Assembly: GCA_949299395.1 (NCBI GenBank)
Contig: CASGAB010000001.1
Span: forward strand, 77,194-141,193
DNA: 64,000 nt
Reading direction: 5' to 3'
Origin: an uncultured bacterium
GTDB lineage: Bacteria; Bacillota_I; Bacilli_A; RFN20; CAG-826
The position numbers were made by a program, and so were the translations under genes. The notes beneath the pieces were generated by a model that was not told the DNA's origin, did no database searches, and saw only the letters and a program-made list of their open reading frames with translations. Shown here piece after piece: positions 6,940-60,455 of this stretch (positions are counted from its first letter, which is position 1; each line of letters opens with the position of its first letter).

Positions 6940-6945
6940 TATAAT
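6940..6945 (+). promoter_or_regulatory. -10 box for the SRP RNA
   Basis: TATAAT 6 nt upstream of the SRP RNA 5' stem. Confidence 0.55.
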
Positions 6946-6951
6946 CATTGA

Positions 6952-7030
6952 GCCGTTACAAATTAATCTTTCGAACCAGGTCAGGATGGGAACATAGCAG
7001 CCTTAAGAAAATCTTTAGTTGTGTAGCGGT
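6952..7030 (+). ncRNA. ffs: Small-type signal recognition particle RNA (4.5S)
   Basis: Helix-8 signature TCAGG-ATG-GGAA-CAT-AGCAGC; terminal stem GCCGTTACA/TGTAGCGGT followed by a T-run; adjacent to tadA as in Bacilli. Confidence 0.9.
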
Positions 7031-7063
7031 TTTTTTGTTACTATGAAATAATAATTATTGAAA

Positions 7064-55396: not shown

Positions 55397-56226
55397 TCTT
55401 CCTCTTTGTATAACATTTTTTTGATTATATTTTTATTTAAGTTATAGATTAATGAGATGCATATAATTGCATCTTTTTTATTAATCCCGCTTTTAATTAA
55501 TTCTTCATATTTATCTTTTATTAAACTTAAATCGATATCTTTTTTATTTTCTTTATTACCTTCTAAAACAAGAACAAGTTCACCTTTAAATTCTTTATTA
55601 ATTGAAGTTATTTCTTTTAAAGAAGTATAGATAAATTCTTCATAAATTTTTGATATTTCTCGAGCAATTGTTATTTTTCTATCTCCTAAAACTTCATATA
55701 AATCAGATAAAGTTTCATTAATTCTATGAGGCGCTTCATAAATAATTAAAGTATAAGGAAAAGTTTTAATTTCATTAATTTCTTTAATTCTTTCGCTTCT
55801 TTTTGAAGGTAAAAATCCATAAAAAATGAAATGAGAAGTATCTAATGATGATGCAATTAAAGCGGTTAAAGAAGCGGTTGGGCCACTTAAAGGAATAATT
55901 TTATAGCCGGCTTTACTAACTTCTTTAACTAAAATTTCTCCTGGATCAGAAATCGCAGGATAACCGGCATCACTCATACAAGCAACGTTTTTACCTTCTT
56001 CTAAAAGAGAAAGAAGTTTATTAGACATTTCTTTTTCGTTATGTTCGTGACAAGAAATTGTCGATTTTTTAATATTTAAAAGATTTAAAAGTTTTTGAGT
56101 ATTACGAGTATCTTCGCAAAAAATAAGATCAACCGAATTTAAAACTTCGATAGATCTTTTTGACATATCATTTAAATTTCCAATTGGAGAAGGGACTAAA
56201 TATAAAATTCCTTTATTTTGATTCAT
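55393..56226 (-). CDS. rsmI: 16S rRNA (cytidine1402-2'-O)-methyltransferase
   Basis: LYLVPSPIGNL, CEDTR, SDAGYPAISDPG, YEAPHR, KGELVLV. Confidence 0.95.
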   Translation of the reverse strand: MNQNKGILYLVPSPIGNLNDMSKRSIEVLNSVDLIFCEDTRNTQKLLNLLNIKKSTISCHEHNEKEMSNKLLSLLEEGKNVACMSDAGYPAISDPGEILVKEVSKAGYKIIPLSGPTASLTALIASSLDTSHFIFYGFLPSKRSERIKEINEIKTFPYTLIIYEAPHRINETLSDLYEVLGDRKITIAREISKIYEEFIYTSLKEITSINKEFKGELVLVLEGNKENKKDIDLSLIKDKYEELIKSGINKKDAIICISLIYNLNKNIIKKMLYKEED

Positions 56227-57037
56227 GTTTTTGGTTCTTTTTGATAAGTTTTAAAACTTCATCAACTGGTAAGAATTCAACATCATCAACAGCATCTAAA
56301 CGAATGATTTTAGTTAAGATGTTATATGAAGTAATCTTAAATTCTTTGCTATTTATCGTAACTTTTGTTCCTACAACAGGATATTTTTTCTTTTCTTCAG
56401 TATATAAATCATCTTCAAATTTTAAGCAACACATAAGCTTTCCACATTGACCAGAAAGTTTAGGAATGTTGATAGTTAACATTTGGTTTTTAGCTCTATT
56501 TAAAGAAACACCATCAAAAGTATTTAAAAAAGTAGTACAGCAAAGCGGAAGACCACAACTTCCAATTCCACCAACTAATTGAGCTCTTTCTCTAGCATTA
56601 ATTTGTTTAAGTTCAATTCGACAATGAAGTTCGTTAGCTAAATCTTTTAATAATTCTCTGAAATCAACTCTTTCATCACTGACATAAGTAAATAAAACTT
56701 TTGAGCGATCTAAAGTATATTGAGAACTGATTAAATTCATATTGAGCCCCAATTTATGGACATTTTTTTCAAAAACTTTTGATGCTTCAATAGCAGCAGT
56801 AGCATTAAAATTAAAGATTTTAATATCTTCAATAGTAGCTTTTCTTAAAATTGGTTTAATTTCTAAAGGAAATTTTAAAGTAGACATAAGACGAGGCAAT
56901 TCTTCAACCTCTCCCATTTCTCTTCCAATAACTGTATCTACGACAACAAAATCACCTACTTTTAAAGTAGAATCATCTGTCCCAAAATAATATGTTTTAT
57001 TTGTTTTAGCAAACTTAACGCTAATATAAAATTCCAT
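56213..57037 (-). CDS. ricT: RicT/YaaT (PSP1) regulatory Fe-S protein
   Basis: RVDFRELL, RIEL.QI..R, GSCG..LCC, SGQCGKLMCCL. Confidence 0.9.
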   Translation of the reverse strand: MEFYISVKFAKTNKTYYFGTDDSTLKVGDFVVVDTVIGREMGEVEELPRLMSTLKFPLEIKPILRKATIEDIKIFNFNATAAIEASKVFEKNVHKLGLNMNLISSQYTLDRSKVLFTYVSDERVDFRELLKDLANELHCRIELKQINARERAQLVGGIGSCGLPLCCTTFLNTFDGVSLNRAKNQMLTINIPKLSGQCGKLMCCLKFEDDLYTEEKKKYPVVGTKVTINSKEFKITSYNILTKIIRLDAVDDVEFLPVDEVLKLIKKNQKHESK

Positions 57038-57229
57038 CGATATTTTTACCTTTTCTTTTAAAATCTATTTGTAATTTTAGTATTTTAATACTAAATTTTC
57101 AATCTTTTCTATTTATCACAAATATATGTTTTCACGTGGAAATAATATATTAGTATTAATAAAATAGGTTGAAATAATTATTTCAGCCTTTAAAATTTAA
57201 TTTAGATTTGTTTTTTAGGAGATATAATA

Positions 57230-58468
57230 ATGAGTTTTTTAGAAAGAGAAGATAAAGAGATATTTGATTTAATTGAAAAAGAACATAATAGACAAAATGA
57301 ACATATTGAATTAATTGCTAGTGAAAACTTTGTTTCTAAGGCAGTTTTAGAAGCACAAGGTTCAATTTTAACTAATAAATATGCTGAAGGATATCCATCA
57401 AAAAGATATTATGGCGGATGTGAATTTATCGATGGTGTCGAAGATTTAGCTCGTGAAAGATTAAAAAAATTATTTAATGTTAAATATGTTAACGTTCAAG
57501 CTCATTCCGGAAGTAGTGCTAATATGGCTGCTATTAGAAGTTTAATTAATCATGGAGATAAAATTTTAGGTATGGGGTTAGACGCCGGAGGACATTTAAC
57601 TCATGGTTATAAATTATCTTTCTCTGGCCAAGATTATGAATCCTATACTTATGGCGTAAATATTGAAACCGGTTTAATTGATTATGAAGAAGTTAGAAGA
57701 CTTGCTTTAGAAATTAAACCTCAACTCATTATTTGTGGAGCTAGTGCTTATCCTCGTGAAATAGATTTTAAGAAATTTAAAGAAATTGCTGATGAATGCG
57801 GTGCTTTTTTAATGGCTGATATTGCTCATATTGCCGGACTTATTGCAACAGGATTACATAATACCCCAGTTGGTTATGCTGATGTTATTACTTCAACAAC
57901 TCATAAAACTTTAAGAGGTCCAAGAGGCGGAATTATCATGACTAATGATGAAGAATTAGCTAAAAAGATTGATAAAACTCTTTTCCCAGGTTGTCAAGGT
58001 GGTCCACTTGAACACGTTATTGCTGCTAAAGCAGTTGCTTTTAAAGAAGACTTAGAACCTTCTTATAAAGTTTATATGGAAAATGTTCTTAAAAATTGTA
58101 AGGCTTTAGCCGATGAATTTATTAAACTTGGTTATAAAGTAATTAGTGGAGGAACCGATAATCACCTTCTTTTACTCGATGTTAAATCGACAAAAGGCGT
58201 TACTGGTAAAGAAGTAGAAGACCTTTTACAAAAAGTTAATATTACTGTTAACAAAAATTCAATTCCAGGAGACACTGAAAAACCTGCATATACTTCAGGA
58301 ATTAGACTAGGAACACCAGCTATGACTACAAAAGGTTATACTGAAGAAGATTTTAGATTAGTTGCTCATATTATTAATGAAGCAATCGAACATAAAAATG
58401 ACGAAGAATATCTTACTTCTTTAAAAAATAAAGTTATCGAATTAAATAAAAAACATCTTACTTTTTAA
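57230..58468 (+). CDS. glyA: Serine hydroxymethyltransferase
   Basis: [42 protein letters not shown]. Confidence 0.97.
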
Positions 58469-58473
58469 TTAAA

Positions 58474-58965
58474 ATGGTTGATATTGGAAAAGCAACAATA
58501 GAAGAACTTGATGCTATTTTAAAAATTTATGAAATAGCTAGAGATTTTATGAAAAAAAGCGGTAACCCTAATCAATGGGGAGACACCGATCCAACAAAAG
58601 AAAGAATAATAAATTATATAAATAGTGGTGATTTATATATCGGAATTAATGAAAATAACGATATTCTATTTTCTTTTGCACTTATTTTTGGAGAAGATCC
58701 AACATATAAATATATTGAAAACGGAAGTTGGTTTGATAACTCTCCTTATGCAACTATTCATTCTTTAGCAAGTGCTCAAAAAATCAAGAATGTTTTTGGC
58801 TATGTTTTAGCTTTTTCTCTTTCTAAAATTAATCATATAAGAATTGATACACACGAAGATAATCATGTTTTTCAACATATTTTAGCTAAATATAAGTTTA
58901 AAAAAAGTGGAGTCATTTACCTAAGTAATGGATCTCCACGAATCGCATTTGAGTTAACTATTTAA
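58474..58965 (+). CDS. GNAT-family acetyltransferase
   Basis: GNPNQW, DPTY, IRIDTHEDN. Confidence 0.8.
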   Translation: MVDIGKATIEELDAILKIYEIARDFMKKSGNPNQWGDTDPTKERIINYINSGDLYIGINENNDILFSFALIFGEDPTYKYIENGSWFDNSPYATIHSLASAQKIKNVFGYVLAFSLSKINHIRIDTHEDNHVFQHILAKYKFKKSGVIYLSNGSPRIAFELTI

Positions 58966-58984
58966 CTCTTCTATCTATAGAAAC

Positions 58985-59350
58985 TAAAAGAGTTCAGTTT
59001 ACTTAATTCTCTACCACCTTACACATCATCGATAGTTTCTTTACACTACCTCATACATTAAGACTAGATTATCCTACCTTCCATACATTTTGGGGATTTC
59101 TTTTTTATAATTCCTAATCACAAATTCTTCATTCTACACTTCTTATTACTTTGTCTTATATTATCTTTAAATAATAATTTTTAAACAAAGGATTCGTTTT
59201 CTTCATAGATGTAATTGTTTAATTACCGTTTTCACTTTTCTATTATTCCAAGGTTTCTTTTTTCTTTAATTATTATTATGATCCACCTTGTATTTTATAG
59301 AAAATCTATGAGTAGGAAGTTTAGGATATCGTTCCCTGAACTCTTTTATT
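58985..59350 (-). ncRNA. Candidate novel ~365-nt structured RNA
   Basis: 13-bp terminal stem, several nested helices, sigma-A promoter directly upstream, no ORF of meaningful length (see findings). Confidence 0.6.
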
Positions 59351-59356
59351 GACCAT

Positions 59357-59385
59357 ATAGTAATAATAAAAAATATTTTTGACAA
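59357..59385 (-). promoter_or_regulatory. Sigma-A promoter driving the candidate ncRNA
   Basis: Minus strand TTGTCA (59385-59380)-N17-TACTAT (59362-59357). Confidence 0.65.
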
Positions 59386-59432
59386 GCGATTTTTTTAATA
59401 TTTTTTTCAAAATTTACGATTTTTTTCGACTC

Positions 59433-59478
59433 TTTTACGAACGAAAGATTTTGGTATATAAAATTTTTCGTTCGTAAG
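59433..59478 (-). terminator. Hairpin downstream of holB (probable terminator)
   Basis: TTACGAACGAAA/TTTCGTTCGTAA inverted repeat. Confidence 0.5.
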
Positions 59479-59492
59479 TAATTGATTAAAAA

Positions 59493-60455
59493 TTAACTTG
59501 TTAAACTATGTAACAAAAGTAGTTGAATATTAATATTTTTAGAAATTAAGTTCTCATCTTCTAAAATAATTTTAATAGTATTAGATAAATCAGAGGTATT
59601 TTTTAAAATGATTTCAATTAGTCCTAAAAATGGTTTAAGAAAAATTTCTTTATCAACTTTTCTTTTAAAGGCTTCATTATAAAAACTGATCAATAAATCA
59701 TAAAAAAGATAAACTTTTTCCTTGCTATTTAAACTAGGAATGATATCTTTTTCAACAAAAAAGCGAGCGGTCTTTTTATTTGATAATCTTTTTATATATT
59801 CAATAACTAAATTTTTAACTAATTCAAAAGTTTCATTAGATAAATTAACTACGATTTCATCATAATCATTATATAAAGTGGAAAGAAGATAAAAATCTTC
59901 AGTTAAAATGTTTTCATCCTTAGCTTTTTTAATAAATATTTCTTTATCAACATCTTTAAAACGAATAATTTCTACTCTAGAAAGAATAGTTGGTAAGATT
60001 TTATTTTCATTTTCACTAGTAAAAATAGCGTAAGTATTTTCAGGTGGCTCTTCTAAAAATTTTAACAAGGCATTAGTACCTTGAAGTGATAAATATTCAA
60101 TATTTTCGATAATATAAACTTTAATTCCTCTTTTTTCACTTGCCGAACGAGAAAATAAATCTTCGATTTTTAAACGAATATCATCGATTTTTATTGAATC
60201 AAGACGGGCATCAAAAGATAAAAAATCACCATAGATTCCTTCATTAACTCTATTACAAGTATTACAAGAATCACAAGCAAAAATATCTTTTTCACATAAC
60301 AATGATTTAGCTAAATATTTAGCATATGTTCCAAGTGAAGAGCCTTTTTTACCAACTAAAAGGTAGCCATGAAAAAATTTATTATTTTTTAAAGCGTTAA
60401 AAAATAGATTATAGGCATTTGGTTGATATTTTTTTAACTTATCACTTACTTTCAT
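59493..60455 (-). CDS. holB: DNA polymerase III delta' subunit
   Basis: Zinc motif, IKIDDIR, NALLKFLEEPP, LPTILSR; follows tmk. Confidence 0.9.
   Translation of the reverse strand: MKVSDKLKKYQPNAYNLFFNALKNNKFFHGYLLVGKKGSSLGTYAKYLAKSLLCEKDIFACDSCNTCNRVNEGIYGDFLSFDARLDSIKIDDIRLKIEDLFSRSASEKRGIKVYIIENIEYLSLQGTNALLKFLEEPPENTYAIFTSENENKILPTILSRVEIIRFKDVDKEIFIKKAKDENILTEDFYLLSTLYNDYDEIVVNLSNETFELVKNLVIEYIKRLSNKKTARFFVEKDIIPSLNSKEKVYLFYDLLISFYNEAFKRKVDKEIFLKPFLGLIEIILKNTSDLSNTIKIILEDENLISKNINIQLLLLHSLTS

Follow-up and report, generated by a model that had tools for sequence, protein, structure and literature searches.

Between holB and a convergent gene for a GNAT-like protein, the genome of an uncultured bacterium contains a structured element of ~370 nt (minus strand, ~59351-58980) that is conserved in nine species of one genus of uncultured Bacilli with small genomes and does not match any known RNA family. 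Coordinates refer to the window, which is the whole 64,000-nt stretch of DNA that we analyzed; the host genome (G000) is 1.24 Mb in 39 contigs and is 96.9% complete. On balance, we think that a stable, structured non-coding RNA is encoded here by a gene of its own, that this RNA represents a new family restricted to one lineage, and that it works in trans, either as a scaffold or as a partner. Most of the weight of this judgment is carried by the gene call. The original prediction, which was made from the letters of the window, was of an independent large non-coding RNA. Synteny, compensatory changes, a promoter kept in register, and strand-specific G-U pairs argue for it.

On one side of the element is holB (59493-60455, minus strand), whose product matches DNA_pol3_delta2 in Pfam and the delta-prime family in NCBIfam. 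On the other side is the GNAT gene (58474-58965, plus strand, 163 amino acids), which is convergent with the RNA and ends ~20 nt past it. The protein has no match in Pfam (E ≤ 10) or NCBIfam (E ≤ 1e-5), and its sole tie to the GNAT fold is its similarity to two GNAT acetyltransferases with solved structures, 2pc1_A (E = 1.1e-11) and 3h4q_A (8.4e-7). Directly before the GNAT gene is glyA (57230-58468), and beyond glyA is ricT (56213-57037, minus strand). The element was originally described as convergent with the GNAT gene and therefore not a leader, and indeed no gene follows it on the same strand. Nor does it contain a sizeable ORF, again as first described. There is no ORF of 40 amino acids or more on the minus strand of the locus, and the plus strand has one 45-amino-acid TTG ORF. 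The longest ATG ORFs in the nine homologs have 0-27 codons and none of them is shared; the shortest type of homolog (type B, below) has no ATG ORF at all.

The features of the predicted gene, in minus-strand order, are:

58980..59351, minus strand: RNA gene (~370 nt) with predicted ends; sequence conservation, one match to CM R1 in the whole genome, MFE z = -3.85
59380..59385, minus strand: -35 box TTGTCA; a -35-like hexamer is at the same distance in 9/9 homologs
59357..59362, minus strand: -10 box TACTAT, 17 nt past the -35 box and 6 nt ahead of the conserved 5' end; TAnnAT in 9/9
59336..59348, minus strand: 5' arm of the closing stem P1, a perfect 13 bp with 58985-58997 (inverted repeat I1)
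59315..59328, minus strand: 5' arms of P2/P3, which pair with 59070-59082 in the MFE fold
59203..59311, minus strand: three-way-junction domain (P4, P5, P6, and P7); MFE fold and covariation in 8 sequences
59311-59304/59210-59203, minus strand: P4, 8 bp, MFE fold
59303-59297/59243-59237, minus strand: P5, MFE fold
59290-59285/59254-59249, minus strand: P6, MFE fold
59211..59226, minus strand: P7 hairpin (loop AAAC), more conserved than any other internal element
59149..59190, minus strand: P8 hairpin, type A only; consensus fold of four genomes
59070..59082, minus strand: 3' arms of P2/P3, MFE fold; P3 is kept with four sequences in types A-D
59010..59068, minus strand: 3' hairpin domain P9/P10, variable; types B-D carry other sequence here
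58985..58997, minus strand: 3' arm of P1, which leads into a U-rich tail at 58979-58988

The near-consensus promoter that was originally noted on the minus strand (TTGTCA, 17 nt, TACTAT) is present at 59385-59357, with 9/12 matches to the consensus. By itself, this match is at chance level: the region is AT-rich, and 58400-59800 contains 9 promoter-like sites, versus 9.2 ± 3.3 in shuffled sequences. But the same register is found in all nine carriers of the element: a -35-like hexamer, exactly 17 nt, TAnnAT, 6 nt, and then the conserved 5' end. The hexamer is TTGTCA in three carriers, TTGCCA in two, TTTACA in three, and TTGCAA in one, and the boxes are kept in all nine while the sequence around them differs. 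Transcription would start near 59351. Among the close relatives, conservation begins at the -10 box and ends just past the closing stem, and the flanks diverge. A U-rich run follows P1 in all nine homologs, and we suggest that this tail is the end of the transcript; a terminator scan of the locus did not call a terminator.

In the window, the RNA's predicted minimum free energy (MFE) is -73.8 kcal/mol (z = -3.85), and none of 100 shuffled sequences folds as well. Since the plus strand of the same block has a similar score (z = -3.89), folding energy alone does not pick the strand. The perfect 13-bp closing stem that was first seen in the sequence (59348-59336 with 58997-58985) is in this fold, and each of the nested helices that were listed with it is in either the MFE fold or the consensus fold of four genomes. 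The long-range bulged helix consists of 59328-59322/59076-59070 and 59319-59315/59082-59078 in the MFE fold. The hairpin at 59149-59190 (P8) is in the consensus fold only, and the fold of the single sequence pairs this region differently. P8 is absent from types B and D. Taken alone, the window's sequence (the helices, the folding energy, and the promoter-like match) is no more than suggestive.

We searched for homologs with BLAST across 61 relatives and found full-length copies, at 81-83% identity and with the same neighbors, in three genomes of the genus. Both BLAST and a full-length covariance model (R1) found just one copy of the element in the window's own genome. Of the 60 genomes of the genus, 58 yielded a HolB. 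We fetched 30 of the holB loci and viewed the downstream side in all but two short ones, which leaves 28. At nine of the 28 loci, holB is followed by a gap of 378-571 nt and then a convergent GNAT gene, and all nine gaps contain the RNA element. At the other 19 loci, the next ORF is directly after holB, and in the five cases that we tested, that ORF is ricT. Across the genus, the element is carried by nine species out of 60. The original prediction had proposed that homologs next to holB be collected and checked for covariation; these nine carriers are the result, and they do show covariation. They fall into four sequence types of ~250-370 nt:

Type A, G000 (the window), G074, G031, G008, and G010: ~368 nt
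Type B, G035: ~250 nt
Type C, G006 and G072: ~345-350 nt
Type D, G025: ~285 nt

Among the relatives that we searched, neither BLAST nor R1 linked the sequence types to each other: R1 found the five type A copies, and it found type D only with the filters off (24.5 bits). In all nine homologs, G outnumbers C by about two to one (14-18% versus 8-10%) and 62-65% of the bases are purines; the element is ~26% G+C.

The carriers are the species whose HolB is nearest to that of the window (identities of 76, 76, 76, 73, 60, 55, 53, and 50%), and HolB identity drops to 49 and 47% in the species that come next. Because the nine carriers are exactly the species with the nine closest HolBs, the distribution is consistent with the element having arisen once, in the ancestor of the clade, when glyA and the GNAT gene came to lie between holB and ricT. 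In each carrier, a block of ~2.4 kb, with glyA and the GNAT gene on one strand and the RNA on the other, lies between holB and ricT (57038-59492 in the window; loci L033-L062). Homologs of the GNAT gene are present in 36 of the 60 genomes of the genus, at varying places, and the RNA element is beside them only where the GNAT gene adjoins holB. At 21 loci where a GNAT homolog is placed elsewhere, we found no related element (six of these gaps were read).

The boundary between the RNA and the GNAT gene varies. P1 extends with its 3' arm to the end of the GNAT ORF in types B and D. In type C (loci L039 and L040), a compact GC-containing hairpin followed by a T-run lies between the RNA and the GNAT gene; it has the appearance of a bidirectional terminator and is missing from the window's type A.

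Beyond the neighborhood of holB, a model of the junction (R3) had one match each in eight of the genus's 60 genomes, and all eight were already known as carriers. R3 missed the carrier G006, even though G006 was in its training set, as only ~61 of ~1450 candidates per genome were scored. With R3, we also searched 145 genomes from elsewhere in the family (47 other genera) and found no matches, but this is a soft negative because the filters lose true members such as G006. We also used a pattern with the 5' arm of P1 and the P7 loop to search 401 genomes of the order (8 families and 70 genera). The pattern matched 58 genomes, which is about the rate for the reversed control, and just seven of the matches carry the family's sequence, all in known carriers. 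Among 30 of the pattern loci that we fetched, the closing partner was complete (12/12) in one, the known carrier G006, and 11/12 in eight others, which have unrelated sequence. In a scan of a public collection of genome contigs, one of the at least 119 stretches listed was real, and it came from a known carrier; a public collection of metagenome contigs gave two stretches, both spurious. Within these searches, then, the RNA family is found in nine species only, and more diverged members could escape. Because the family was not found outside this clade, the element may be non-essential or even neutral.

Despite their different sequences, each type folds by itself into the same plan (z = -3.85 for type A, -5.00 for B, -3.75 for C, and -4.92 for D). 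P1 joins the two ends. Within P2/P3 is a three-way junction at which P4, P7, and P5, whose tip is variable, meet. Beyond the junction are a variable middle part and then a 3' hairpin domain. The positions of the helices are kept and their sequences are not: there are three unrelated sequences for P4, three for P5, and four for P3. In P1, 12 pairs are 100% paired in all nine homologs, and three of the pairs have changed on both sides (in type B). The loop and the inner three pairs of P7 are identical in all nine, and of its other stem pairs, the fourth has changed on both sides in type D and the outermost in G010. In P2/P3 (helices 3-4 of alignment A4, below), six pairs have changed on both sides.

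We compared three alignments to shuffles and to slid controls. A5 is a MAFFT alignment that was not fitted to any model (427 columns). A8 was aligned by a model (R2) that was built from type A only; G008 was left out so that a spurious partial match would not enter the alignment. A4 contains the five type A sequences and type D (432 columns). A fourth alignment (A6, a MAFFT alignment of the junction domain) was misaligned and was left out. The results were:

A5, P1 and P7: 9 sequences, 18 pairs; paired 100% (shuffles 96.6%); both-side changes 5 (shuffles 0.7 ± 0.8); slid controls 0
A8, junction domain: 8 sequences, 28 pairs; paired 96.3% (shuffles 76.2%); both-side changes 20 (shuffles 9.0 ± 2.0); slid controls 2-8
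A4, full length: 6 sequences, 88 pairs; paired 98.2% (shuffles 93.8%); both-side changes 18 (shuffles 4.7 ± 1.8); slid controls 0-5

In each of the three alignments, the observed number of both-side changes was reached by none of 500 shuffles; these counts are not probabilities, as the sequences are kin, and the fitting of A4 and A8 to a model favors structure. Also, because the nine carriers are close kin, the changes amount to a few independent events, in three or four lineages.

The pairs that are not Watson-Crick indicate the strand. Among the paired cells of A4, there are 30 G-U pairs versus 2 A-C pairs, and in A8, there are 6 versus 3. The U-G wobbles in P1 of G010 and of type C would become A-C mismatches on the other strand. 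Together with the excess of G over C, these pairs point to the minus strand.

These observations suggest how the RNA might work. A promoter of the sigma-70 type would start transcription a few bases ahead of P1. This stem of 12-13 bp joins the 5' and 3' ends, and with the U-rich tail, it most likely sets the 3' end and shields both ends. Inside P1, P2/P3 would carry the three-way junction and display the invariant P7 hairpin, and we propose that P7 and the junction are the working site. In trans, the RNA would then bind a protein or another RNA, or serve as a scaffold for it. The variable 3' domain and the type-A-specific P8 would be dispensable; the purine-rich linkers and the 3' hairpin domain do differ between species.

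Which partner might be involved? The original prediction noted three copies of a motif (similar to AUGURU..AGGURG) in the purine-rich 3' part of the RNA and suggested that they could be protein-binding sites in a sponge. The three copies are present in the window, and in its richness in purines and its repeated G-rich motifs, the window's copy is similar to the CsrB/RsmZ sponges. However, only the third copy of the motif is kept among the closest relatives (whose RNAs are 81-83% identical), and types B, C, and D either lack the 3' part that bears the motif or have a different one. Also, searches of the host genome (96.9% complete) for CsrA (PF02599), Hfq, and Ro/TROVE found none of them. As the motif copies vary and these proteins were not found, the suggestion of a sponge loses its basis. 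The absence of CsrA, Hfq, and Ro from our searches of this small genome also narrows the possible partners.

A check for known families, which the original prediction had called for, gave no relevant match. When we ran cmscan with Rfam 15 on the window, no family reached its gathering score at the RNA locus. Even at E ≤ 10, the seven matches within 58800-59600 are to eukaryotic miRNA, snoRNA, or UTR models, all with E ≥ 0.81 and with 14-19 bits versus thresholds of 50-245. ARAGORN did not find anything in 58500-59700. Specific candidates were rejected as well. RNase P RNA type B (RF00011) has no match at the locus at E ≤ 10, and rnpB is encoded on another contig (G000:C18, 219.9 bits); the element resembles this class in its length of ~370 nt and in having a long-range P1 that closes the molecule, but it has no match to the model and no sequence relation to the genome's true rnpB. 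For tmRNA (RF00023), ARAGORN finds nothing at the locus, and the genome's tmRNA lies elsewhere on the same contig (G000:C1:154953-155318). A T-box, a riboswitch, or a cis-acting leader was rejected because no such model matches at E ≤ 10 and because what lies downstream on the minus strand is the tail of the convergent gene. The only gathering-level match to Rfam anywhere in the 64 kb is a small bacterial SRP RNA at 6945-7042 (plus strand, 62.2 bits). The words that the element shares with rnpB, ssrA, and the SRP RNA are at chance level only. Of the housekeeping RNAs for which the original prediction proposed a check elsewhere in the genome, rnpB and ssrA (and the SRP RNA) are there, while 6S RNA (ssrS, RF00013) was not found in the window's genome at E ≤ 1. 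RF00013 did not match any of the 60 genomes of the genus, and control genomes matched as expected, so 6S RNA is either absent from the genus or has diverged past the model.

Could the element instead be a local, cis-acting or antisense element of the GNAT-glyA genes? P1 might be a bidirectional terminator or insulator, or read-through from the RNA might be antisense to the GNAT gene and glyA and lower their expression. In all nine carriers, the RNA is tail-to-tail with GNAT-glyA, and it was at none of 21 GNAT loci elsewhere; in types B and D, P1 extends with its 3' arm as far as the end of the GNAT ORF; P1 has an A-run on one side and a U-run on the other; and the plus strand also folds well. 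Indeed, the constant position of the RNA fits a local role as well as it fits simple descent. Like bidirectional terminators and MITE repeats, the element has a perfect inverted repeat that is flanked by an A-run and a T-run and lies between convergent genes. But a conserved, covarying structure fills the 338 nt between its arms, and a terminator would have no need for such an interior (340 nt), with its covarying three-way junction and invariant hairpin. The element also has its own promoter, which is kept in register, and the G-U pairs favor a single strand. In type C, the separate hairpin and T-run before the GNAT gene mean that no overlap is needed there. We consider a purely local role to be rather unlikely. 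A more elaborate version, in which the RNA is a riboswitch-like sensor of a ligand, would have the formation of P1 determine whether the transcript ends at the U-tail or continues antisense into the GNAT gene and glyA (one-carbon metabolism). Many aptamer-terminator units are laid out as P1 is, with a U-run immediately after the stem that closes a complex junction, and glyA is a common target of metabolite control. However, the minus strand has no gene downstream of the RNA, the riboswitch families give no match at E ≤ 10, a strong terminator-like hairpin follows the RNA separately in type C, and neither the size of the element nor the large differences between types (250 to 370 nt) are what one would expect of a ligand pocket. 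We think that ligand sensing is very unlikely.

The lack of a match to RF00013 in all 60 genomes leaves a role without an assigned RNA, and the element, like 6S RNA, is predicted to be driven by its own promoter and has paired 5' and 3' ends. It could therefore be imagined as a highly diverged member of a known housekeeping class, such as a 6S-like regulator of RNA polymerase. But at the locus, 6S RNA, RNase P RNA, tmRNA, and SRP RNA do not match at E ≤ 10, and the last three are encoded elsewhere and share only chance-level words with the element. Furthermore, all four types have a branched fold with a three-way junction, whereas 6S RNA is a long irregular rod with a large central bubble. The element is in just 9 of the 60 members of the genus, and because the other 51 lack both it and a detectable 6S RNA, the two are not complementary in their distributions. 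We give this idea very little credence. As for the possibility of a MITE-like relic of a mobile element, or of non-functional structured DNA that became fixed in the ancestor of the clade, the element does have perfect terminal inverted repeats of 13 bp, an AT-rich interior, a length of 250-370 bp, and a spread that is confined to one clade. However, there is one copy per genome, always at the same locus, and the bases outside of the two arms differ, so there is no target-site duplication; these findings rule out a MITE, which had been named as a potential refutation of the original prediction. Also, changes in the internal helices are compensatory, T-G but not A-C pairs are tolerated in the terminal repeat, and the promoter is kept, which suggests selection on an RNA. 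We consider a relic of any kind to be extremely unlikely.

We return to our preferred reading, a stand-alone gene for a structured RNA of a new family. The raiA motif, OLE, ROOL, GOLLD, and HEARO are RNA classes that are in Rfam. The element appears to be of the same kind as the orphan large structured RNAs of the Firmicutes (the raiA motif, OLE, ROOL, and GOLLD), with a well-supported structure and a narrow spread. Like them, it would be a stand-alone gene of hundreds of nucleotides, with covarying multi-way junctions, no coding capacity, and a genomic context that is silent on its function. In contrast to them, it has no match in Rfam at E ≤ 10; it is found in nine species of one genus instead of in whole orders or phyla; its G+C content is ~26%; and large parts of it seem dispensable, as type B has just 250 nt. 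In part of the text of a large screen of the human microbiome (PMC8040213), holB, Mollicutes, and Tenericutes are not mentioned. We found no published description of the element in the sources as far as they were available, where its characteristic strings match unrelated primer lists only; the supplementary lists of PMC8040213 or of similar studies may include the motif.

Few large structured RNAs are known in bacteria beyond the classic set, and they have repeatedly yielded new biochemistry. With four very different versions of one core across nine species, the comparison identifies the parts that are needed: P1, P2/P3, and the junction with P7. The family also lends itself to studying the evolution or the origin of a complex RNA fold. 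More speculatively, the RNA might have been born recently, with the rearrangement that placed glyA and the GNAT gene; it might work without the usual RNA chaperones; and it might be a new ribozyme, an RNA-only particle that assembles by itself, or a stand-in for a housekeeping RNA such as 6S RNA. We regard this scenario as improbable, but if the reading of a recent birth is true, then this would be a rare large functional RNA that was caught near its origin.

Two other hairpins adjoin the RNA in the window. First, the 3' arm of P1 (58985-58994) could pair with a near-repeat of the 5' arm at 58964-58973 (10 nt, 90% complementary; I13). This alternative was not seen in the flanks of the other type A genomes and is probably due to chance. 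Second, between the stop codon of holB and the promoter of the RNA, there is a hairpin of ~11-12 bp (59436-59478, minus strand) that is kept in the five type A genomes. It is followed by an A-run instead of a U-run, and it drew weak matches to miRNA models. In minus-strand order, the AT-rich stretch with the promoter separates this hairpin from the RNA block. The hairpin may stabilize the 3' end of an mRNA.
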